Shown here one piece after another: positions 4,507 through 36,118 of a stretch of 64,000 nt of DNA. The number at the start of each line of letters is the position of its first letter. The stretch's first letter is position 1. Position numbers and translations under genes: made by a program. The DNA comes from Raja brachyura. Lineage: Eukaryota. The stretch covers positions 17,732,001 through 17,796,000 of the forward strand of contig OY740784.1 of NCBI GenBank assembly GCA_963514005.1. The letters run 5' to 3'. Below the pieces are notes generated by a model. The model had not been told where the DNA came from, made no database searches, and saw nothing but the letters and a program-made list of their open reading frames with translations.

Positions 4507-5994
4507 GTAAGTATATTTTACTACTGACTTGAAATGCTACTGACATGTAATGATCACTGAAAGAATACATATCTTCTGCTTATGTAGAGAATATTTCTTT
4601 CCTTCACATTCTGAGATTTTAAGACTCGTAACCTTCAAAGGGTTTTCTAAAATGTTTTTTTTTTAATTTTCCCGTTTAAGACATTTTTGTTTTCATCTTA
4701 TATCAGAGATGAACCTGCATTGAACTATGGATAATCCGCCGGCTTTTCTGAATTACTATTTAATTGTAAACAGTAACCAGAGCTGCTGAACTAGGGATGA
4801 ATGATATGGCAAATGACAGAATAATCACAATGCAGCTAACCAAACAAACATTACAAAAATCTGTCTATTTAGGTCTGCAAACTAATTGGGAACAAGGATG
4901 CAGATGTAGAATGCTTGGGAAATTAAAAATGGAAGTGATTATGTACTTACATTATGACAATCTTTTAAACATTAAATATTTTATTGGTTCTTAAATATTT
5001 TTCTTTTTACATTCGTTAGAATTTGAAGGGTGTATAATGGCCACACTGTTGAATACAGTGTTTGGATTCACTGTTATCCCTCTCTTAGAATGTTGTATCT
5101 TTATGGCGCTACACTTGTATATGAAGGTGCAATTTGAAATGAGATACAATGTCCATATTAGACCTGTTTCTTATATCTCCTGAAACCGATTCCATAACAG
5201 GGTTTGCTTCAGCATGGGTCTGAAACTCTTATCAACTCCTTGTCATCTCTGAGGTTTCCCAGTTCTATCCTGACAGGAAACCCAGCTCTGTGAACTCTAC
5301 CGCGACAGCTCTGCAATTTTTCTTCGCTGACTTAGTGGCTCCCTAACCTTCAACTCGTATATAACAAAATCCAAATTTTCATTTGTAATCCATTTATGAT
5401 TTTAGTTACCTCTGTAACCTGCTTTAAATGTACATCACAGCCCAGACTCCTTTTGCTTTAATACCAAACTGCCCTACTCTTTCTGCTTCAGATTTGCATT
5501 GACAAACTCATTCATCAAAAATGTAAGGTTGTAATAGAGGTTATGTTGCATGACTGACAATGTAGAGCTCCAGACTAATAATAAGGAGACGTGTGTTCTG
5601 CAGTGGTTATTTGATTAGCAAATCTTTTCACGTGGCTGTGGAACTGTTCAGAAAGGTGACTGCATCAAGAAAGACATGAACACTACCAGGCTTGGCAAAA
5701 ATAGTGTTGTGGACTTTTACAGACTCTCCTAGGTCTGGAAGAATTCAGATATTTCAGTGGGATTTTCTTTTCGAAAGAATAAGCTCCAAATTCATTAACT
5801 AACAACATTAAAAGTTTAGTTATTTATCTGTGTTCATATATAGAATAGAATAGAACAGAATGCATTTTATTGTCATTCAAACAGCTTGGTTTGAGCGAAA
5901 TTGCATTTTCTACAGTCTTAACATTACAAAAAAACAAACTACAAATTACATTATAATGACACATTGCTCTGTTATACATGTTGCTGTAGTAAAT

Positions 5995-6431
5995 ATCCTG
6001 GGATGTCAGGACTTTCATATGAAGAAAGACTGGATAGACTCGGTTTGTACTCGCTGGAATTTAGAAGATTGAGGGGGGATCTTATAGAAACTTACAAAAT
6101 TCTTAAGGGGTTGGAAAAGCTAGATGCTGGAAGATTGTCCCCGATGTTGGGGGAGTCCAGAACAAGGGGTCACAGTCTAAGGATAAGGGGGAATTCCTTT
6201 AGGACTGAGATGAGGAAAACATTCTTTACACAGAGAGTGGTGAATCTCTGGAATTCTCTGCCACAGAAGGTAGTTGAGGCCAGTTCATTGGCTATATTTA
6301 AGAGGGCGTTAGATGTGGCACTTGTGGCTAAAGGGATTGGGGGTATGGAGAGAAGGCAGGTATGGGATACTGAGTTGGATGATCAGCCATGATCACATTG
6401 AATGGCGGTGCAGGCTCGAAGGGCCGAATGG
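5995..6431 (+). mobile_element. CR1/HER1-type LINE 3' fragment
   Basis: LSYEERLDRLGLYSLEFRRLRGDLIETYKI...TRGHSLRI...FFTQRVVNLWNSLP, the CR1 ORF2 C-terminus. Confidence 0.92.
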
Positions 6432-7639: not shown

Positions 7640-7861
7640 GTGAGTGGGAACAATATTTCCTTTGCATCCAGTTGAATCTACTTTGGAAAGAGCTGTTTTG
7701 TAATGACTTTCTATGGAAAGACCGTGCATGCATTGTGTGAAATTGGGTGTTGAGGCCCATGAAATCCCTATCATCCCATCAGTTACTTTTAGTTAAAATC
7801 AGTGGTAATCATCAAAGCAAAATAAAATCATGATAAGCAGGAATTTGGAGTCAGGAAAAGC

Positions 7862-8445
7862 AGTCTTTGGACACGATCTACCACGGAGTACTGAGATTTG
7901 TTACAAATTTTAAAACCCTCACGCACCACTGCTCTTTGTATGAACAAGTTGGATGGTTTGCCCTGTCCACCCGCAGACTCCATCGTTGGCATATCCTTAT
8001 CTATAACACTATCCTCGGTGTTCTTCCTTCATACCTGCAGAAGTATGTAATTCGAAAAAGCACAGGAACTTATCAGCTCCACTCTGAGGACTTGTTCTTA
8101 CTAACTGTACCTAATGTCCGTACTGAACTGGGGAAAAGGGCATTTAGTTCTGCTGCTCCCTTCACATGGAACCAGCTGCAGAATGAATTGAAACTTAAGG
8201 AGCTGGTTTCTATAAACAGATTTAAATCTCTTCTTAATGATGTTGAAGCGGGCTCTTCTGTCTGTATTGCTTTGTTTGATGTTGTTATGACTGTGACTCT
8301 ATTTATATGTTCTCTTATATGTTTTTAAATTGTTGTCTGTAACTGGGGAACTGTGCTGCTGCCTGTCTTGGCCAGGACTCTCTTGTAAAAGAGATTTTTA
8401 ATCTCAATGAGACTTCTCCTGGTTAAATAAAATTAAGTAAAATAA
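7862..8445 (+). mobile_element. L2/Crack-like LINE 3' fragment
   Basis: ORF LDTIYHGVLRFVT..THHCSLYEQVGW..L..RR..VPNVRTELGKRAF.AAP.TWN, followed by a 3' stem-loop and cctggttaaataaaa tail. Confidence 0.8.
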
Positions 8446-8995: not shown

Positions 8996-9750
8996 ATAGA
9001 TAATAGACAATTGGTGCAGGAGTAGGCCATTCAGCCCTTCGAGCCAGCACCGCCATTCAATGGCTGATCATCCCCAATCAGTACCCCGTTCCTGCCTTCT
9101 CCCCATATCCCGTGACTCCGTTATTTTTAAGATCCCTATCTAGCTCTCTCTTGAAAGCATCCTGAGAACCTGCCTCCACCACCCTCTGAGGCAGAGAATT
9201 CCAGAGACTCACAACTCTCTGTGAGAAAAAGTGTTTCCTCGTCTCCGTTCTAAATGGCTTACTCCTTATTCTTAAACTGTGGCCCCTGGTTCTGGACTCA
9301 CCCAACATCGGGATCATGTTTCCTGCCTCTAGAGTGTCCATCCCTTAACAATCTTATATGTTTCAATGTGATCCCCTCTCATCCTTCTAAACTCCAGAGT
9401 GTACAAGCCCAGCTGCTCCATTCTCTCAGCATATGACAGTCCTGCCATTCCGGGTATTAACCTTGTAAACCTACGCTGCACTTCCTCAATAGCAACAATG
9501 TCCTTCCTCAAATTAGGGGACCAAAACTGTTCACAATACTCCAGGTCTGGTTTCACTAGGGCTCTGTACAACTGCAGAAGGACCTCTTTGCTCCTATATT
9601 CAATTCCTCTTGTTATAAAGGCCAACATGCCATTCGCTTTCTTTACTGCCTGCTGTACCTGCATGCTTACTTTCATAGACTGATGTACAAGGACCCCCAG
9701 ATCCTGTTGTACTTCCCCTTTTCCCAACTTGATGCCACTTAGATAGTACT
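8996..9750 (-). mobile_element. CR1/HER1-type LINE 3' fragment
   Basis: Minus-strand ORFs QDLGVLV...KKANGMLAFI...LYRALVKP.LEYC; (CTATTGT)n-type tail. Confidence 0.93.
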
Positions 9751-10659
9751 TATTGGTATAGTTTCCATGTGGTCGGTCCAGGATAAATTGTTGGTGATAT
9801 TTACACCTCACTTCCTGAAGTCATTAAACTACCTGCTTTGGAGAGGTTAAAGATGTTCGCGAATAGTCCTGCTAGCTGATCTGAGAAAGTTCTGAGGCAG
9901 CTGGGGACCAGACCAGTTGTTTTCCACAGTATATAATACCCCATCTCTCACAGAGGTATGAACATGAGATGAGAGGAAAGAGAATTGAAAGAGGAAGAAG
10001 ATGGCGATGAACCTGCAGCATGTTGGAAGAAATAAATTCCAAAGAAACTTTCAAAGTAACAAATATGTCAGAAGAGAATGGATGAAAGTTTGAATTAGAA
10101 TGTGATGATTACAGAATCTTTCTTATTCCCCGATTGCCTGAAGCAAAGACCTCACAATGTAACCAATAATCTTCCAACCCAAAATATATCCCAATGATAT
10201 ATTATACAGATTGCAATGTTCTTACCATCCTGGTGGAGCTACATCAACGATAACGTCATTTATTTTTAGGCTGTTGGACATATTAAATATTGCCATCTGC
10301 CTCTTTCCTGCTGAGTGCTTTGAACCTGCCTTCTCAACAATCGGCAATGTATTTTATTCGGTGTGATTCTCCAACATCTTTCTGAATGCTTTCCATAACC
10401 CAGAGGATGTACATTAGTAAATGTGAGAGTTTTATTTCACTTCAAACTTCATGTACTTTGACAGCTTCACTCAACACCTTGATTCAAAGCATATTTTAGA
10501 AATACTTAATTCATGTTATCTTACAAACGCATTAAGGAAGTGTACTTTTTAAAATTTCCTCTATCGACAAATTAATACCACCGATATATATCAGCTAAAA
10601 TTTCCCAAAAAAGGGAAGAATCCACTACTTAAATATGATAATTTGGACTGCAGAGAGAG

Positions 10660-16896: not shown

Positions 16897-18740
16897 GTCA
16901 GTGATACCATGACCCTAACCTTTCTATCTCCACCAATAGCTCAATAAATTCCTACTCGAACAATAAATCAATCAATAAATTACCACTCGTATGTCCCCAT
17001 GCCATTGTTGTGTTCATCTATGCAACCTCTTGAAGATTTATCCTGAACCCCTGTGTCACTTGTTTCTCTGACTCAAAGTACCTACACCTTGCCTTCTGGA
17101 AAGTTTTATAGGAAACAGTAATGTAGTTGTTATGCTATAAACTAATAATCTTGAGGCTTCGACCTGGAGAAAATGAGTTCAAATGCATTCATGGTTAATT
17201 GAAATTTAGAATTAAGTTTGTAAATTAGCCATTGCTAGAGAAAGTGACGATGAGCCTGTTGTATTCGTATAAAGACATAATACCTTGCTTGTGCACGATT
17301 AAAGTCTCAACTGACACATTAAGTTTACAGAATTTACACTCAACTGACAAAATTAAGAGGGTGTGGCCTCTTAATGTTGTTGAATGGGGATGTGCATCCC
17401 TGATAAGGCTTGTATCCAAAAACTAAAATGTTTTTTTTTTAATGTCCTCCACCTAAGTACACTCTTTTTTAACCTTTTTTGTCCAAGCATTCATTGATCC
17501 CATCAAAATGCAACTTTGCAGCTTATTATATCCCATTAAACCATTTCATACTTTCAGCAACTTTGTGAAGATTCAAAGTCTTTTCCCACATCCTTCCTCT
17601 GTCCTCTACAATTGAACGTCTGCGAGATGCTTATTCTGCTTCACAGCTAATATCTGTTCTCTACAATTTCCTGTTCACTTATCATAGATTTGAAAATCTT
17701 CCTTTCCCCTGTTGTTCTCAGTCATTATCTCTCCAGTTCCCTTTGTCTTTGCACAAAGTATCCAGTGTATCTTTTTTTCTCATTTTGTACACTGAGACAA
17801 CTTCTGAATGGGAGGGTCAGGTGGGTACAGTTTAGGGACAAGAATCGTGAAAATAACTTAACTTGTGAAAGCAGTATTGTGAGGTGTTAACACTGTGCTG
17901 TGGCTGTAGGGATGCAGGCTTTACAATCTAAGGAGCAGACCTACTTGGTGAATATTAAAACACAAATAACAACAGCAACACACAGTATATGCAGAGTATT
18001 CCTTGTGGATAACTTGTCACTGGGCTTCACAGTTGCTAAATACTGTGATATAGAACAGTTTATCAATGGTATTCTGTAATTAATGTTGGGCTCAAAGTAA
18101 TATGCTGTCTGTGCATTTGTGAATACATTTGAGTTACATTGAACAATCAGTAACGATAAGTGATTTTTTTTTTTTCCTTAACTTTCTATTAAGAGATCTG
18201 AAATCTTTCTTTAAATGAATGCATGTTGTGCAGTGCTTGAGGCCATAAATAGCATTGCCCTAGGACAGCTTATTGACTACCTGGTAAAATTCAGAAGAGA
18301 CTGATTCTTTGACTATTTGTGGCCTGCGTTTCATTTCTCTGAGGATATTACAGTTTTCCCTTTTGCAGTGATGAACCAGAGTCTTCAGTTCATCACACTT
18401 GGGAGATGCATCTGCTGTCAGCTAATCCAGGTATTGTTGTGTTAGGAAACATGTGGCTCACTTGCCTAGTCTTGAAAATGTAGGTTGGTCTCTCAGTCGG
18501 GAATTATTTGTAGGCAAAGCTTTTATATTTCTTTTCTAAGCATAAATATAGCCAATTTGTGTGATTTATATTCTTCTCCAGATGTATAAACTGATTATTT
18601 CAGAGGAAGATATGAGCTTGTGAGAAAGTGTACACAATTGTATCAGTTTTTTCCTGTTTTTAAATAAATGTATGAAATTCAAAATGTTGCAGTTGATAGG
18701 TGAGCATAATAAAATTCCAATTTTTGCTTGTACATTTTAG

Positions 18741-18828
18741 GGGCATGTCACCTGCTGAAGCAGAGATGCATTTTTTGGAAAATGTCAAAAAGCTATCTAT
18801 GTATGGAGTGGATCTACATCATGCCAAG
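18741..18828 (+). CDS. EPB41L3: 4.1B FERM exon ([29 protein letters not shown])
   Basis: ttttag| ... |gtacat, 88 nt, phase 2-0; FERM signature LSMYGVDLH. Confidence 0.97.
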
Positions 18829-20387
18829 GTACATCAACAATTAAACTAAGTGGGATAGTATTTTAGAGTGTTTCCATCTCTGCTTGAAGTGACTCAACTG
18901 ATTAACTGTTGGAACGTTTTCTTTGAATAAAAATGTGAAAGAACTGACATACAGTATAAAAGGCATCAGCAATGGTTTGCTATTTAATTAGAAATGTACA
19001 AATCTGATTAGCCCAAACTCCCCATCATTGCCATCCCTCAGTAAATGTCAAAAGCACAACCTGGTTTAAATATAGGTGGTTTGTGGGTATATTTTGTATC
19101 TATATTTCATGTTGAAGTTCACAATGTTCACAATGCATATATTTTACAGCTGATTAGTCGCTACCCAAGTTTGCAGCATAATCGCAAATCAATCTTGCAG
19201 ACAGGGCTGCCTCAAAAATTAGCGTCAGCTGTGGCTTGTGTGAGAAGGTTGTCAGTTCTAGTGCCACTCCAGTAAGGTGTTCAGAAATCCAGTTTAACAA
19301 TTATCTGTAGGTCGATGGGATGGCTTTATTGTTTGAGCATCTGCCTCTTGGATGCAGTGTTAAAATGAGATTTGATCCATTGTGTTGGATAGATGGCAAA
19401 GATCAGATGCTGTCATTTCAAAAAAGAGCAGGGATGCCACCAATGAAGAATCCTAACCCAAAACGCCACCTATCTATGTTCTCCAGACCAGAGATGCTGT
19501 CTGACCTTCCGAGTTATTACAGCACATTGGATTTTTTTGGTAACCAGCATCTGCAGTTCCTTGTGCCTCACTGTTGATGAATCCAAGTTGTTTGTCATGT
19601 TTTCTATCGCACAAATGTGACTGCACTTTATTATCAGTGCAGCAAGGGTTTTTGTTTATATTCAATCAGAATAAGTATCATATAATGTGGAATTGGTGAC
19701 ACTGGTTACAGAAAGTATAGCACTTGTTTTTGTCAGCTGAGAGTTGCCATTTTATATTTTAAATTGCTTGCTCTTTGTCTTGGCTGAAACCCATATTTCA
19801 GAAACATGAATATATATCAAGATGCCATTGCAATTCAACAAAGCTTAAATGGAGTTGCTTCCTCGTATAGTGCCTGAGCAAGATGCTTGCTGCTCATCCA
19901 GACAAGACCAAGTCAGCTGTTAGGGAGTGAGTTATTTGGATATTGCCCATGAATGATTCCAACTTGAATCATTCACCCTTGAAAGACATTTTACAGACTG
20001 ACAGGTTAATCATCAATAGGTGACCAAATGCCATCATATATCATGACCATTTATATCATGGGTCTTGTTCCAGTTGCATTTATAATGCACATTGAATATT
20101 ATGAAGCATCCCTTGGATCCTCACAGATGTGTTATCAGGCAGATGAAAAATGTATCTGATGCAAAATATAACAGAAACTGAAGGAAAAAAATGAAGATGT
20201 TGCATCTAAAGAAACAGAGTTCATTGAGGTGACATGTTCGCAGATGCTGCCTGACTTGTTGAGAATTTCCAGAGTCCTTTGTTTGTATTGTTAGTTAAAA
20301 ACTGACATCAGGCAGCCCGCAGTAGGGGAAAGTATCTAAAAGTTTTGTCAAAAGGTAGGTTTTAATAAGTCATTTAAGGAAGAGAAA

Positions 20388-20547
20388 ACATTTAAGTAGG
20401 AACTCCAGATGCTGGAAAAATCAAAAGTAAACAAAAAATGCTGGAGAAACTCAGTCTGAAGAAGGGTCTCGACCCGAAACATCGCCTACTCCTTTTCTCC
20501 ATAGATGCTGCCTCACCCGCTGAGTTTCTCCAGCATTTTTTGTCTAC
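20388..20547. mobile_element. Penelope pLTR-derived short element
   Basis: Inverted arms, hammerhead-like core at 20456-20483, 13-bp TSD TAAGGAAGAGAAA (20375-20387, 20548-20560). Confidence 0.85.
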
Positions 20548-20579
20548 TAAGGAAGAGAAAGCTGTAAGATAGGGAGCAG

Positions 20580-21268
20580 CCAGCATTTAGAGGCTAACTT
20601 AACTCACACATTTGTAAGTTGTATAAAAATTAAAAACTTTTGGACGGAAATTTTAAAGATAATTTCGGAAGTTGTCAACACCCAATTGGATCCCGACTCA
20701 AAACTAATAATATTAGGAATATCAGAACAAAGTCTAACACTTACTAGAAGCCAAAGAAACGTTATCGACTATAGTATAATAATTGGGAAAAAAATTAATA
20801 TTAACATTTTGGAAAGGTTCCATATCCCCCACAATTTAAATGTGGATTATGGAAATGTCGGAGACCCTACATTTGGAAAGAATTAGACTTGTCTTAATGG
20901 ACAAACAAGGACTTTTTATCAGAATATGGTCTCCATTTAATAACTATTTGAAGGGGCAAACTGGTTCGGCACGAGAACCTGACTGAAGCTCGAATCAAGG
21001 ATTAGATGAAAAGTTATACTTTGCAATTTACGAACCTATCTCCAATGTTGTATTATTAGTAAATTATTCCATTCTTCTTTATCATGCTTTTTGTTTCTCT
21101 TTCTTTATTATTTTCTATCTATATTAAAATATATATATATATATAGAAGCAGAGTCATTAAATAATTGATAATATTGATAATATTAGCAATGAATGACTG
21201 TTATACATGATATGTTCTTATTATTTACTTGCTTCCAATAAAAAAATACTTTAAAAAAAATTTAAAAA
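20580..21268 (+). mobile_element. 5'-truncated L1-clade LINE with poly(A) tail
   Basis: Degenerate ORF2 C-terminus (LILTFWK..P...W...MSETLHLE...F..IWSPF), AATAAA plus A-rich tail, 14-bp TSD AAGATAGGGAGCAG (20566-20579, 21269-21282). Confidence 0.8.
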
Positions 21269-21488
21269 AAGATAGGGAGCAGTAACCGAGAGATGGAGGG
21301 ACTTGAAAAGTAGGCAAGGCTTTTAAATTTGTCTGTTCTAAACTGGGGTTACTTTAAGTCAGCAAGCACGGGGAAATGGAGGCAAAGGGGATCAGTGGTG
21401 CATTGGTTTGGATGAACAGTATATGGATGGGGAAGATGGAAAGCGGGCAAGCTGCATATTACGGTCATCGAAACTGGACATAATGAGC

Positions 21489-21633
21489 TTCTTCTTCTTG
21501 CGTATGGCGTGCACAGCCTAAAGTTGTAGGACAACTTGTTCTATTTTATCTTATTTGTTTGTGCACGCCAGGTTGAAAGCATTCGTCGAAACAGGAAGGT
21601 TGCAACCACATGAAGGTTGCAATCTCCCACCCC
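21489..21633 (-). mobile_element. Short Ingi/Vingi-like non-autonomous retroposon with HDV-like ribozyme head
   Basis: 11-bp TSD ACATAATGAGC (21478-21488, 21634-21644); 3' end ...CCATACGCAAGAAGAAGAA; 5' end fits HDV-like ribozyme element order. Confidence 0.7.
21575..21633 (-). ncRNA. Degenerate HDV-like ribozyme
   Basis: Minus strand: GGGGTGG (P1) GA GATTGCA (P2) ACC (P3) TTCATGT (L3) GGT (P3') ... CCT G T-TTCG-A (P4) CGAA (J4/2) TGCTTTC (P2'). P1' is disrupted in this copy. Confidence 0.6.
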
Positions 21634-21734
21634 ACATAATGAGCAATGGTGAGGGTTCAGCAGCAATATTTTGACCACCACACTGCTTTACTGGGGTCAG
21701 ATTAGTTCAGCAATGATATACTTGAGATACATTT

Positions 21735-22080
21735 GTTTAATTTAATTTAGCTTTGTTTACCGTGACGTGTACCGAGGTTATAGTGAAACGCTTTTGTTGC
21801 GTGCTGACCAGTCACCAGAAAGACAATAAATGATTAGTGCAAGATATAGCCAGTAAAGTCCAATCAAAGATAGTCTGAGGGTCTTCAGTGAGGTAGATAG
21901 TAGTTCAGGACTGCTCTCTAGTCATGGTAGGATGGTTTAGTTGCCTTTTAACAGCTGGGAAGAAACAGTCCCTGGATCTGGAGTTGTGCGTTTTCATACC
22001 TCTATACCTCTTTACCTCTTGCCCGATAGGAGAGGGGAGAAGAGGGAGTGGACAAGGTGTGCTCCAGAGAGATAGGAGAG
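21735..22080 (-). mobile_element. Rex1/Babar-like LINE 3' fragment
   Basis: Minus-strand peptide KRYRGMKTHNSRSRDCFFPAVKRQLN and 3' end ...cttttcacta..cctcggtacacgt..ggtaaacaaa. Confidence 0.7.
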
Positions 22081-22310
22081 GGCGACTCTGTGCTGCATAT
22101 AATTGTTGGTCCACAGCCTAGTGTGGATTAGGAAATTGTAACAGGGGTAAGTAGGGTATCTAGCATTTATTTATGGATTTTAGGAACAATTGAGGTAGCT
22201 GACAAATTGGAAGTGTGTTTATAGTCTTGAACCTAGATTACTCCCAGAGACTTCTGTTCCTCTACAAGGAAGCCAATTGTTCATCACACACACGATGAGC
22301 ATGTCATTTA

Positions 22311-22538
22311 AAGGCCTGTCCCAATTGGCAATTTGTTTTCGGCGACATCAGTGTCGCCAAAAGATTTTGAACATTTCAAAATCCAGCGGTGAAAACAAAA
22401 TCCTGCGACACTTGAAAAAACACCGCGCGCCGTACGTCATCACGCCACATCACGCTGCAAATTTTTCGGTGACCTGATAATTGGTGTCAGTCAATTATGC
22501 CGGCAGTCGCCAAAAAAATTGCCAGTGGGACAGGCCCT
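22311..22538. mobile_element. Harbinger/PIF-like MITE copy 2
   Basis: TIRs AAGGCCTGTCCCAATTGGCAATTT / AAATTGCCAGTGGGACAGGCCCT, TTA TSD. Confidence 0.8.
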
Positions 22539-23904
22539 TTAGCCTTTAACCACGGCAGCTGCCAGGAAAAAAACAATGTGGAATGTCTAGGATGTGGAGC
22601 CAACTTCTTCCAACAACAGGAACATGCTTTGACTTTTGAAGCGTTTCCATGGGGCGGGTTCCTGAACTTCAGTTACAGCTGATTGACTGTGCAATGTAAT
22701 TGTAGCTGGCACAGACCCCTGGATGTATGTGTTGTATATTTGTACCTAGCTTCCTCCAAGAAAGACATCTCAAATCACACATCTATTGAAAGCACACATT
22801 GACTCACATTTGAACGCAGACTTTTAAAGAGACTCTAGTTGTTGTGCAAGTGAGGGAATTGAACCTCAAATGGTTTAGCTCCAGTACTACTGAAATGGAA
22901 ACCCATTCATTCCCAAGAATGGTGAACAATGAAGTAGGTGGACAAACAAAGGAAAGCATGAAATGGAGTGGAGGTGCTGTAAAAACCAGGAAAATGGGTT
23001 TGAAAGTGGGAGAGGCTGGGGACAGAGGAAATGTCAACAGATTAGTGGATTTGTGGCAAAGGAGGCAAACCAAAATGGGGGAAGAATTGGAAAGAAACAG
23101 AAAAAGAAGTATAGCACAGGGAACAGGAACATACCTGTATACATTCAGGTGCTGATAAATGTAGAATAGAGCCTGGAGCAAAAAAGCTATTTCCTAACAA
23201 TATGATGTTTCAAGTCAGGACCCATCTTCAGACCTTCAGATCCCTTTCCTCCATTAGTCTGAAGAAAGGTCCCCAACTGAAATTTTAACCATCTATTCCT
23301 TTCACAGATACTGACTGACCTGCAGAAGTTATTTTTTTGCATATGATTTCAGCATCAGCAGTCTCTTGCGAATCAAATTTACTGCTCCACAATGAAAACT
23401 CGATCAAAGTCAGCCAATTCAGATATTCTCCTCCCCCCCCCCCCTCTCCTCACTAGTCTGAAGAAAAGAACTGACCCGAAACATAATCTTCCCATTTATC
23501 TCCATAGATGCTACCTAAGTTACTCCAGCAGTTTGTTTTTTTCTAATGAAAAAGACTAGTTTGCTTTTCATTTTAGATCCAGGCATTCCCATTTGTGGTA
23601 GTATTTGATGGCATTTTTTTGTTCCTCTGGCCATCTGGCATGAAATTGGTGGATATTGGATAACGTGGCCGATGTGGGTGTAGGCTTCAGGTTTTCTGCC
23701 ACAGTTGCATTATTCAGTCAGAGTAAGCATAGCAATTCAGCAGTATTTATGATACTAGAAAAATTGAATTGTAGGGCTTCTGATGGGCTTGAGTGCACGA
23801 CTACAGAACCCTACAGCATCCAAAACAATGCCCATTGAATCTGTCAAGAAGAACCAGGCAATTAGCTGCTACCTGGACATCATGAGTGACTGTTGCAATT
23901 GATG

Positions 23905-24182
23905 TAGGGGGTAAGCTATTTAGAGCGGAGATGAGGAAATACTTTTTCACACAGAGAGTTGTGAGTCTGTGGAATTATCTGACTCAGGGGGTGGTGGAGG
24001 CCGGTTCTCTGGATGCTTTCAAGAGAGAAAATTAGATAGAGCTCTTAAAGATAGCAGGGTCAAGGGATATGGGGAGAAGGCAGGAATGGGGTACTGATTG
24101 TGGATGATCAGCCATGATCACAGTGAATGGCGGTGCTGGCCCAAAGGGCCAAATGGCCTACTCCTGCACCTATTGTCTATTG
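23905..24182 (+). mobile_element. CR1/HER1-type LINE 3' end
   Basis: ttttcacacagagagttgtgagtctgtggaa...ggcctactcctgcacctattgtctattg tail. Confidence 0.9.
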
Positions 24183-24427
24183 ATGTAGAAATTGGTGGAC
24201 TGGTTTCTGGGTACAACCAATTGCTAGGCCTTGAGTTAGAAACTAGTTTTGACTGAAACCTGACAGAACTGTTGCACTTCATTTTAATGTCCTGTAACCT
24301 TTTCAACACTGAGATTCCTGAAGGACCTGCATACAATTTCAGACCATTACTGTTTTGTGAATGTGGACAAAATGTACTCAACAGTACTGTAATATTTGCA
24401 TGAAATTTTATGTTCAGTGATAACTAA

Positions 24428-24721
<294 letters not shown>

Positions 24722-33980: not shown

Positions 33981-34669
33981 AAAACATAGAAAATAGGTGC
34001 AGGAGTAGGCCATTCGGCCCTTCGAGCCTGCACCGCCATTCAATGTGATCATGGCTGATCATCCAACTCAGTATCCCGTACCTGCCTTCTCTCCATACCC
34101 CCTGATCCCTTTAGCCACAAGTGCCACATCTAATGCCCTCTTAAATATAGCCAATGAACTGGCCTCAACTACCTTCTGTGGCAGAGAATTCCAGAGATTC
34201 ACCACTCTCTTTGTAAAGAATGTTTTCCTCATTTCGGTCCTAAAGGAATTCCCCTTTATCCTTAGACTGTGAACCCTTGTTCTGGACTCCCCCAACATCG
34301 GGAACAATCTTCCAGCATGTAGCTTGTCCAACCCCTTAAGAATTTTGTAAGTTTCTATAAGATCCCTCCTCAATCTTCTAAATTCCAGCGAGTACAAGCC
34401 GAGTCTATCCAATCTTTCCTCATATGAAAGTCCTGACATCCCAGGAATCAGTCTGGTGAATCTTCTCTGTACCCCCTCTATGGCAAGGATGTCTTTCCTC
34501 AGATTTGGAGACCAAAACTGTACGCAATACTCCAGGTGTGGCCTCACCAAAACCCTGTACAACTGCAGTAGAACCTCCCTGCTCCTATGCTCAAATCCTT
34601 TTGCTACGAATGCTAACATACCATTTGCTTTCTTCACTGCCTGCTGCACCTGCATGCCTACTTTCAATA
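33981..34669 (-). mobile_element. CR1/HER1-type LINE 3' fragment, young
   Basis: Uninterrupted 199-aa ORF 34068-34667 (LYRVLVRPHLEYCVQFWSP...RVVNLWNSLP) and (CTATGTTT)-type tail. Confidence 0.95.
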
Positions 34670-36118
34670 ATTAATAAGGATTTTGTTTATTGGGGAGGGG
34701 AAGTGAATTGAGAAGAGCAAATGCTGTGGTGAATGTTAGTAATGGGGGAGCTGTGAGTTCAATTGGGTTTGAATAAAATATGTATGGGTTACTTCCAGCA
34801 ACCTGCAATAAATCCAATTAAGTCATTTTAATCAGAACAAATTAGTTGCTGACACAAAATGCCAAGTTGGTCTGCCTGGCCAAGGTGGCATGAAGGGCTC
34901 AATGAGTCCATCCAGAATGGTATTTCCAGAGAGGTGAAACTAAATATGATCTTGGGAAGAGCAGCAATAGAGGGTAGGTGGTAATTAGACCACTCTTAAT
35001 CCATTCCACATTTCAAGTTGGCACTCTATCTCTAACGGTCAAAAACACTTCAATATAATGTAAGCTCTCTTGCTGCTGAGTACTGATTGACAACACATTT
35101 TTTTGTACAGCAATTGAAGTTTCCAGTGTATAAGAGCTGTGTAGGTGTGATGTTTTTTTCCAATTGAATTCATCAGCCTTTCTCTGCAAATATAGATACG
35201 TAGAATTGTGGGTGCAGATCATCTGTAAACTAGTAGCAGGATAAAATACACTCGAGGGACTCGAGAGTCTATTCCAGTTCACATAATGCTATCAGTAGTA
35301 ATTCATATTTTGGGGTCAAATTCCCAACCTTTGAACTTTCCATAGTTTCACTGTGTAAACCTTTAGTCATGTGACTTTTTCCATGATGCGTAGATGCCAT
35401 CTGCTGACATTTTGTATAATAATACAAATCCACCATGCCTAAAACCCATGTATCTGCTGGATTTGGCATATTATCTCCCAGATCAGATTCTTTCAGCACA
35501 CTTGTAGCTGAACTCCTTCAATTATAATCACCTGTAGCACATTCTAATTTGTCAGTCAGCATATGAAAATCTATAAAATCTGAAAAGACTGGAAATCTGA
35601 AATGGTGGAAATAGTCTGGCAGGTCAGCTAGCATCTGTGGAAAATGAAATAAATTGACACTTCCAATCCAAGACACTTGACCAGACTGGTAATTCTAAAT
35701 TGCAGAGAAGGTGGTGAGAGACTGGAGAGAAAAAAGGAATACCTGTGATTGAGTGAGGCCAGGTGAAATGGGTGAATAGGGCAATTGGAGGCTGATGATT
35801 CTTCATTGTGTCATGAGAAAGAAGTAATGAGGGTAGGCGGGAATTGGACTACTCATAATCTATACCACACTTCAAGTTGTGTACTCTATCTTGTTTGGTC
35901 GAAAGCACTTCACTACAATGTAAGCAGTCTTGCTGCTAAGTACAACAGATTTAGAACAAGAAATGCTATTATTCTTTATAAAGTTCTTGAAGGATCATGG
36001 TGACCTGATGATATCACCATGTCACGCTGTTCTAATTGAGAGAGAAAAAAAAACAACGGCAAAATCATAGGTGGAGGATCAGCTAAAATGTGCACTTCTG
36101 ATGCATACTAAAAGAGTA

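Follow-up and report, generated by a model that had tools for sequence, protein, structure and literature searches.

A damaged two-ended derivative of a Vingi-type LINE in an intron of skate EPB41L3, headed by a predicted minimal HDV-like ribozyme, with a predicted helix between its two ends

The window, by which we mean the whole 64,000-nucleotide stretch of the Raja brachyura genome analysed here (contig OY740784.1, positions 17,732,001 to 17,796,000 of the forward strand), carries the gene EPB41L3, whose best named protein match (97%) comes from the skate Leucoraja erinacea. Retroelement coding fragments at 1790-2905, 5922-6392, 7837-8328, 9329-9820 and 34068-34670 are presumably Penelope-like, CR1-like and Rex1/L2-like, as judged from their motifs. 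The short element studied here lies antisense in one of the EPB41L3 introns, and the features that matter in what follows are these.

900-62289, plus strand: EPB41L3 (band 4.1-like 3), at least 16 exons in the window
18739-18828 and 24479-24634, plus strand: EPB41L3 exons flanking the host intron (tblastn, approximate borders)
18829..24478, plus strand: host intron of EPB41L3, with the element antisense in it (tblastn)
21634..21644, minus strand: 5' target-site duplication, 11 bp, GCTCATTATGT (read from the sequence)
21489..21633, minus strand: whole element, 145 bp, a damaged copy of subfamily A (alignment, fold)
21549..21633, minus strand: block from the first ~80 nt of a Vingi-type LINE (LINE alignment)
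21575..21633, minus strand: predicted minimal HDV-like ribozyme (descriptor, helices, same head on the LINE)
21627..21633, minus strand: P1 5' strand (fold)
21618..21624, minus strand: P2 5' strand (fold)
21605..21617, minus strand: P3-L3-P3', with one CpG-type change in L3 (alignment and fold)
21595..21604, minus strand: copy-specific 10-nt duplication, five P1' bases replaced (alignment, fold)
21582..21585, minus strand: J4/2 CGAA, predicted catalytic C at 21585
21575..21581, minus strand: P2' with two substitutions, 5/7 pairs (alignment, fold)
21560..21569, minus strand: 5' arm of the predicted end-to-end helix, from the LINE 5' UTR (LINE comparison, pairing test)
21521..21537, minus strand: inner 7-bp hairpin, formed at the deletion junction and absent from the LINE (fold)
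21489..21529, minus strand: LINE 3'-end block, comprising last codons, stop, 3' UTR, terminal motif and GAA tail
21506..21515, minus strand: 3' arm of the predicted end-to-end helix, abutting the terminal ATACG motif (fold, pairing test)
21478..21488, minus strand: 3' target-site duplication, 11 bp, GCTCATTATGT (read from the sequence)

An earlier, sequence-only reading had described this locus as a retroposon made of an HDV-like ribozyme, a stem-loop and a GAA tail, and for the window copy its account stands. On the minus strand the element starts at the first G, 21633, immediately before which cleavage is predicted; P2, P3 with its 7-nt loop, GTTTCGA in the place of P4, CGAA and a P2' with 5/7 pairs all lie where it had put them; the 10-bp stem and the GAA tail are both there, the tail ending at 21489 for a total of 145 bp; the 11-bp target-site duplication is present at 21644-21634 and 21488-21478; and the absence of Pol III boxes was borne out by searches that returned 0 exact A or B boxes and 0 tRNAs. 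The TAG stop codon of the LINE-derived block is at 21520-21518. The inner 7-bp hairpin, which is enclosed by the 10-bp stem, had been overlooked. The proposal that P1' is overwritten by a local duplication was likewise correct: by alignment, element positions 13-22 are repeated as a 10-nt stretch that replaces five P1' bases, and this duplication is present in only one of 30 aligned copies, that in the window. With it the predicted ribozyme measures 59 nt, versus 54 nt in intact copies. Since P1' is lost to this duplication the window copy, which diverges from the family majority by 5.3%, is predicted to be inactive as a ribozyme; a nested P1/P2/P3 descriptor does not match it, P1' being overwritten, and its predicted fold is a plain hairpin.

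The majority sequence of the 30 nearest copies, on the other hand, folds as a complete nested HDV-like structure of 54 nt that lacks P4. P1 has seven pairs and opens with G-U, P2 has seven, P3 has three pairs around a 7-nt loop, CGAA follows, and seven nucleotides occupy the position of P4; the P1/P2 complementarity of the consensus, which the earlier reading had named as a test of its idea, is thus found. Its forecast that P1' would be CCACCCT was wrong for the short family, which has CCGCCCT with a U-G pair, and right for the parent LINE described below. Its suggested check against RNA models had a divided outcome, in that an HDV-like descriptor matches both the family majority and the LINE head, whereas an Rfam scan found no model that matches the short-family head in the window or at five intact-copy loci. 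Of 29 unselected copies, which were drawn in genome order with one duplicate locus dropped, 28 retain the predicted catalytic C of J4/2 (C-N-R-A). The sequence permits at most one C-G pair in a P1.1 mini-helix. All differences between the LINE and short-element heads are compatible with the fold (U-A to U-G in P1, changes in unpaired J1/2, CUAA to CGAA). Intact copies are likely to cut themselves from longer transcripts.

The short family is large. Exact matches to its 22-nt core number 12,318 genome-wide, versus 0 for the reversed control, and two patterns laid over the stretch after the core have 5,335 and 7,491 exact matches. The family comprises at least 12,800 copies of a unit of about 140 bases, and a hand count in the first 20 Mb of contig 1, where 45 of 75 copies were matched by both pattern sets, suggests that the true number is about 20,000 or more. 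It was also found in public sequencing runs of eight organisms, and both main subfamilies were seen in the assembled contigs of three of the four runs examined. The 30 nearest copies, window copy included, are on average 3.3% off their majority, and short copies have a median identity of 93.5% to their subfamily reference. Heterogeneous 5' ends had been named as evidence against a ribozyme-defined start, and the ends proved not to be so: 20 of the 29 unselected copies begin at the first G, 23 lie within two bases of it and all 29 within six. A tail is recognisable in 21 of these 29, with a target-site duplication of 7-14 nt in 15 of the 21, and 23 of the 30 nearest copies have a target-site duplication. 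Among the 30 nearest copies 25 have a T ahead of G1, but this reflects a bias of the query, since 20 unselected copies have T in 9, C in 6, G in 3 and A in 2. A 3-nt insertion in the 5' arm marks a small subfamily (L113, L116, L117, L119, L120), whose copies cluster towards the ends of contigs 3, 17 and 18. On contig 1 (14.79-14.95 Mb) about 20 core matches of alternating orientation lie within 160 kb, probably as part of a tandem segmental repeat that includes the element.

The sequence-only reading had also called for an autonomous LINE that shares both ends with the short element, and such a LINE exists in the same genome. Three exclusion patterns, with 43, 264 and 19 matches, brought up nothing but indel variants, shortened copies and a small subfamily; they missed the parent because the LINE has the tested stretches too. 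A further exclusion pattern, placed on the 3' end, had 405 genome matches, and among the 30 of these that were examined were two copies whose upstream sequence encodes the end of a protein, which gave the route to the LINE. The genome has 684 candidate 3' ends of it. In 30 LINE loci the last ~35 bases and the GAA tail equal those of the short element, and TAG is the stop codon of the LINE. At its 5' end the LINE has the same ribozyme, in a version with CUAA and a fully paired P1, and the short element matches this end to about base 80; in one copy (L299) both ends are present at a distance of 3.1 kb. The short element thus consists of some 80 bases from the start and some 35 from the end of a Vingi-type LINE of 3.1 kb and, since it has the same 5' and 3' ends, is an internal-deletion derivative of it. 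The LINE partner of the SINE-like family proposed earlier has thus been found, and the word SINE falls: the element is no Polymerase III SINE, with exact A and B boxes and tRNA absent and a head that is derived from a LINE, and internally deleted LINE (SIDE, or bipartite non-autonomous LINE) is the better term. Derivatives with other junctions (L038, C2:149362677, C4:33733860, L442, L501, L508 and L509) are independent, which indicates that internal deletion happened several times; L442 is reduced to ribozyme, tiny hairpin and tail. One short-element copy (L284:216-345) has landed within its own parent LINE, in the part that encodes the endonuclease.

A search with the 5' UTR of the LINE found 41 matches, versus at least 12,800 short copies, and every LINE copy examined is broken. 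Copies are about 5.5% from the LINE majority, so that LINE and short element, given the median identity of 93.5% in the latter, have similar ages. LINE starts are ragged, at G1 in only 4 of 18 and at base 8 or later in 8 of 18, and exact starts are for this reason a property of the short element. Pfam, run on seven natural LINE fragments, recognises endonuclease and reverse transcriptase and gives no hit, RNase H included, in the three that lie downstream of the reverse transcriptase; PF00075 is also absent among the 120 homologues listed, most of which are proteins of ~1,000 aa. The LINE translation is collinear with residues 19-1019 of the best homologue (1,019 aa), and its coding layout is one frame of ~1,000 aa. 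In PMC13708176 the Vingi clade is described as compact, with a single ORF, endonuclease and reverse transcriptase, and RNase H absent. We accordingly speak of the parent LINE as Vingi-type, a putative assignment by domain architecture.

An RTE-clade LINE of the same genome (L171-L200, L121-L170) was considered as the mobilising partner instead. It ends in a GAA tail, directly after the stop codon, 25 of 30 loci of its 5' region have an HDV-like head, and 17 of 19 core bases are held in common with the short element. The RTE head begins with C (C-G as first pair), however, its P1 differs and its P4 is long; there is no common 3' sequence, and the Vingi-type LINE matches both ends of the element base for base. 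We consider it most improbable that the RTE-clade LINE moves the element.

Heads of the same general kind occur in relatives of the parent. Among 75 metagenome loci encoding relatives of the LINE protein, which were used for a survey of the clade, a strict HDV descriptor matched 3 of 28 relative 5' regions and had 0 matches in 276,305 nt of reverse strand. A relaxed one matched 7 of 20 distant loci, all no more than 140 nt upstream of the protein match, against a background of 1 in 276,305 nt. The P1, P2 and P3 sequences differ among these 7 of 20 loci, where the fold lies at the position expected. As the descriptor itself demands pairing, the control for helix covariation lies in position and in the reverse-strand background. 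The terminal A(C/T)ACG motif is present at 11 of 28 relative 3' ends. Viral contigs yielded no relative, and prokaryote contigs four loci. PMC5786205 names six clades with 5' ribozymes, Vingi not among them, and no mention of a Vingi ribozyme was found in the titles and passages covered by a literature search on Vingi.

A search of the genome with the model of the CPEB3 ribozyme, RF00622, gave 41 matches, 32 of them above the cut-off and the top one at 65.8 bits. These fall in four further families; for three of them (V2, V3 and V4) a connection to Vingi-like coding sequence was established.

L423-L443 and L498-L510: V2, V3 and V4 loci, with CPEB3-like heads of up to 65.8 bits
L444, L446, L447 and L449-L452: S5, a short family of ~170 bp with a P4-less HDV-like head, a 12-bp stem between its two ends and a GAA tail

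The head of V3 resembles the CPEB3 consensus in P4 as well, and that of S5 scores at the RF00622 cut-off with an HDV-like fold of its own that lacks P4. These sister families suggest that the CPEB3 ribozyme derives from a transposon.

The 10-bp stem of the short element joins a 5' arm from the LINE 5' UTR to a 3' arm from the LINE 3' UTR. In the full-length LINE these arms are 3 kb apart and would form 9 of the 10 pairs, the tenth being completed by subfamily A. To examine the pairing, the 35 nt that follow P2' were set against the 35 nt that precede the terminal motif, using each family's own ends and swapped ends; two of the family end pairs combine ends from different contigs. For the first seven families, which like the window sizes were picked after the signal had been seen, own ends beat swapped ends (4/5,040 permutations), and five of the seven are significant alone. 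V2, V3 and S5 were fetched later and run with the same windows, their ends having been looked at by eye before the computation, and gave shuffle p values of 0.006, 0.03 and 0.001. For V4 the expected 3' arm was written down before its real ends were examined; these match the predicted arm with one bulge (shuffle p 0.0005). Across the 11 families, 0 of 100,000 permutations were as good at any of five windows from 20 to 40 nt, and at 35 nt nine of the 11 Vingi-like families rank their own 3' end above all others, with a permutation p of about 1e-5, p-values that overstate independence because the families are related and not independent on the tree. L361 and L375 rank another end above their own, and L406/L402 is weak. 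The register is fixed, in that pairing begins 5-6 nt past P2' and stops at the base before the terminal motif, and the arm sequences are unrelated between families (e.g., CGCTACACT with AGTGTAGCG in V2). The RTE family of the same genome shows no excess pairing of its ends (shuffle p 0.275). The 10-bp stem is thus not a local accident; it is a predicted end-to-end helix that appears to be kept in distant relatives. An ungapped form of the V4 arm pattern was discarded, as it had 79 matches versus 265 for its control and its recurrent match was the end of an unrelated inverted-repeat element. That false match (L469-L494) is the end of an abundant GC-rich repeat, which we take to resemble the terminus of a miniature inverted-repeat transposon.

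Complementarity of this kind might instead be a by-product of repeated or palindromic protein sites or of template switching, in which case no RNA helix would form. The arm of the short family does contain a 6-bp palindrome and can be read as a repeated site, and the signal is absent in two families; yet the arms of V2, V3, V4, S5 and L354 are non-palindromic and of unrelated sequence, and they keep the same register with G-U pairs and bulges, which makes the by-product account quite unlikely. The length of the retained head bears on another alternative, that it is also an internal polymerase II promoter like Pr77 and that the ribozyme only trims the start. According to PMC3383444 and PMC4035085, the first 77 nt of L1Tc and NARTc are promoter and ribozyme together, and the short element keeps ~80 nt, which exceeds the 54-nt fold; against this, the extra 25 nt are accounted for by the helix arm. 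A promoter in the head is a tentative possibility that would be compatible with our preferred reading and would conflict only with the description of the family as "promoter-less" in the sequence-only reading.

What the helix would do for the element is a separate matter. It may be real and yet serve the translation or stability of an uncapped, non-polyadenylated LINE mRNA, with the short derivatives as passive carriers. In several families the stop codon lies in or adjoins the 3' arm, and copy number does not follow stem strength: of the two subfamilies, the one whose 10-bp stem is improved has fewer exact matches (5,335 versus 7,491), and a stronger helix hence brings no visible advantage. 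Non-coding short families nevertheless keep or extend the helix, and a second argument, for pairing during insertion, comes from copies whose 5' end is flipped. Twin priming is known from L1, where it produces 5'-inverted insertions. In a sample of 30 LINE copies chosen by a reverse-transcriptase probe, six have an inverted piece, which in four of the six is the first 72-80 nt; the sense part of those four begins 300-1,100 nt into the LINE. Among ribozyme-bearing loci of V2-V4, 11 of 30 are inverted heads joined to 3' pieces, though selection for the ribozyme inflates this fraction and favours short inverted heads, and leaves the LINE count unaffected. The inverted V2-V4 heads end 17-55 nt after P2' (one border was set by eye), and seven of the 11 are framed by a single duplication of at least 9 nt whose last bases overlap the inverted piece. 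By analogy with L1, these flipped heads would be products of twin priming, with the priming site immediately behind the 5' arm. Breaks at that position are expected if both RNA ends are held together during insertion, and with them a function in translation or stability alone becomes an unlikely reading.

Our preferred reading, to which we give a probability of about 0.7, is that the window holds a damaged copy of a two-ended LINE retroposon that would be released by its ribozyme and copied by the LINE protein, with an end-to-end helix taking part in recognition. In such a scheme the element would be transcribed by read-through or from an internal promoter, and the RNA would be cut before G1 by the predicted minimal HDV-like ribozyme. 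The 5' arm would then pair with the 3' arm, so that the 3.1-kb LINE RNA would form a loop and the short RNA a hairpin. The LINE protein would bind the helix and the terminal motif, nick the target and prime on the GAA tail, and the 5' end, held near the active site, would sometimes let the second strand prime behind the 5' arm and so flip the head. A bolder form of the idea, for and against which we judge the chances to be evenly balanced, is that a helix of 8-13 bp loops Vingi-type RNAs and admits only RNAs that have both ends, which would account for the two-ended mini-elements and the flipped heads of this clade, and that a head of this kind became the mammalian CPEB3 ribozyme.

If it exists, an end-to-end helix would give a testable reason for the two-ended form of short Vingi derivatives. 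An all-RNA tool for gene insertion is being developed from the anole element Vingi-1; its donor RNAs contain both UTRs, and truncation affects part of its insertions (PMC13708176). A 5' ribozyme with an end-to-end helix would bear on the design of these donors and on inverted by-products. The family furthermore amounts to thousands of natural variants of a predicted 54-nt, P4-less ribozyme in a vertebrate.

Set beside known systems, the element alone is of a known sort, and the conserved end-to-end complementarity is the new part; no description of such a helix was found for related bipartite elements in the available portions of the literature. The flipped heads are like twin-primed L1 copies in being single insertions with a single duplication, an inverted 5' piece and an overlap of a few bases at the priming edge, and differ in that the second strand has primed time and again at the extreme 5' end, as much as ~3 kb from the stop of the first strand. 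The mammalian CPEB3 ribozyme (RF00622) has the same L3 loop as the short family, which is itself unmatched by RF00622 and is linked to it through the sister families. Members of the Vingi clade, as described in PMC13708176, are like the parent LINE in having a single ORF, endonuclease and reverse transcriptase without RNase H, and a length of ~3.1 kb; unlike the LINE with its predicted head, the clade is not on the list of ribozyme clades in PMC5786205. The drz-Mtgn and theta ribozymes share the nested double pseudoknot without P4 and the catalytic C in J4/2; by PMC10879173 they belong to gut phages and are linked to tRNAs, whereas the family here heads an animal retroposon. Internal-deletion derivatives are known for RTE, Ingi, Vingi and R2, and SIDEs (the Vingi-1_EE derivatives, RIME of ingi, NARTc of L1Tc and the R2 SIDEs) are of the same bipartite non-autonomous kind (PMC5786205, PMC3414825, PMC4035085). 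The skate family differs from these in belonging to a vertebrate, in its dispersal in at least 12,800 copies, in its P4-less 54-nt fold and in the helix predicted between its two ends.
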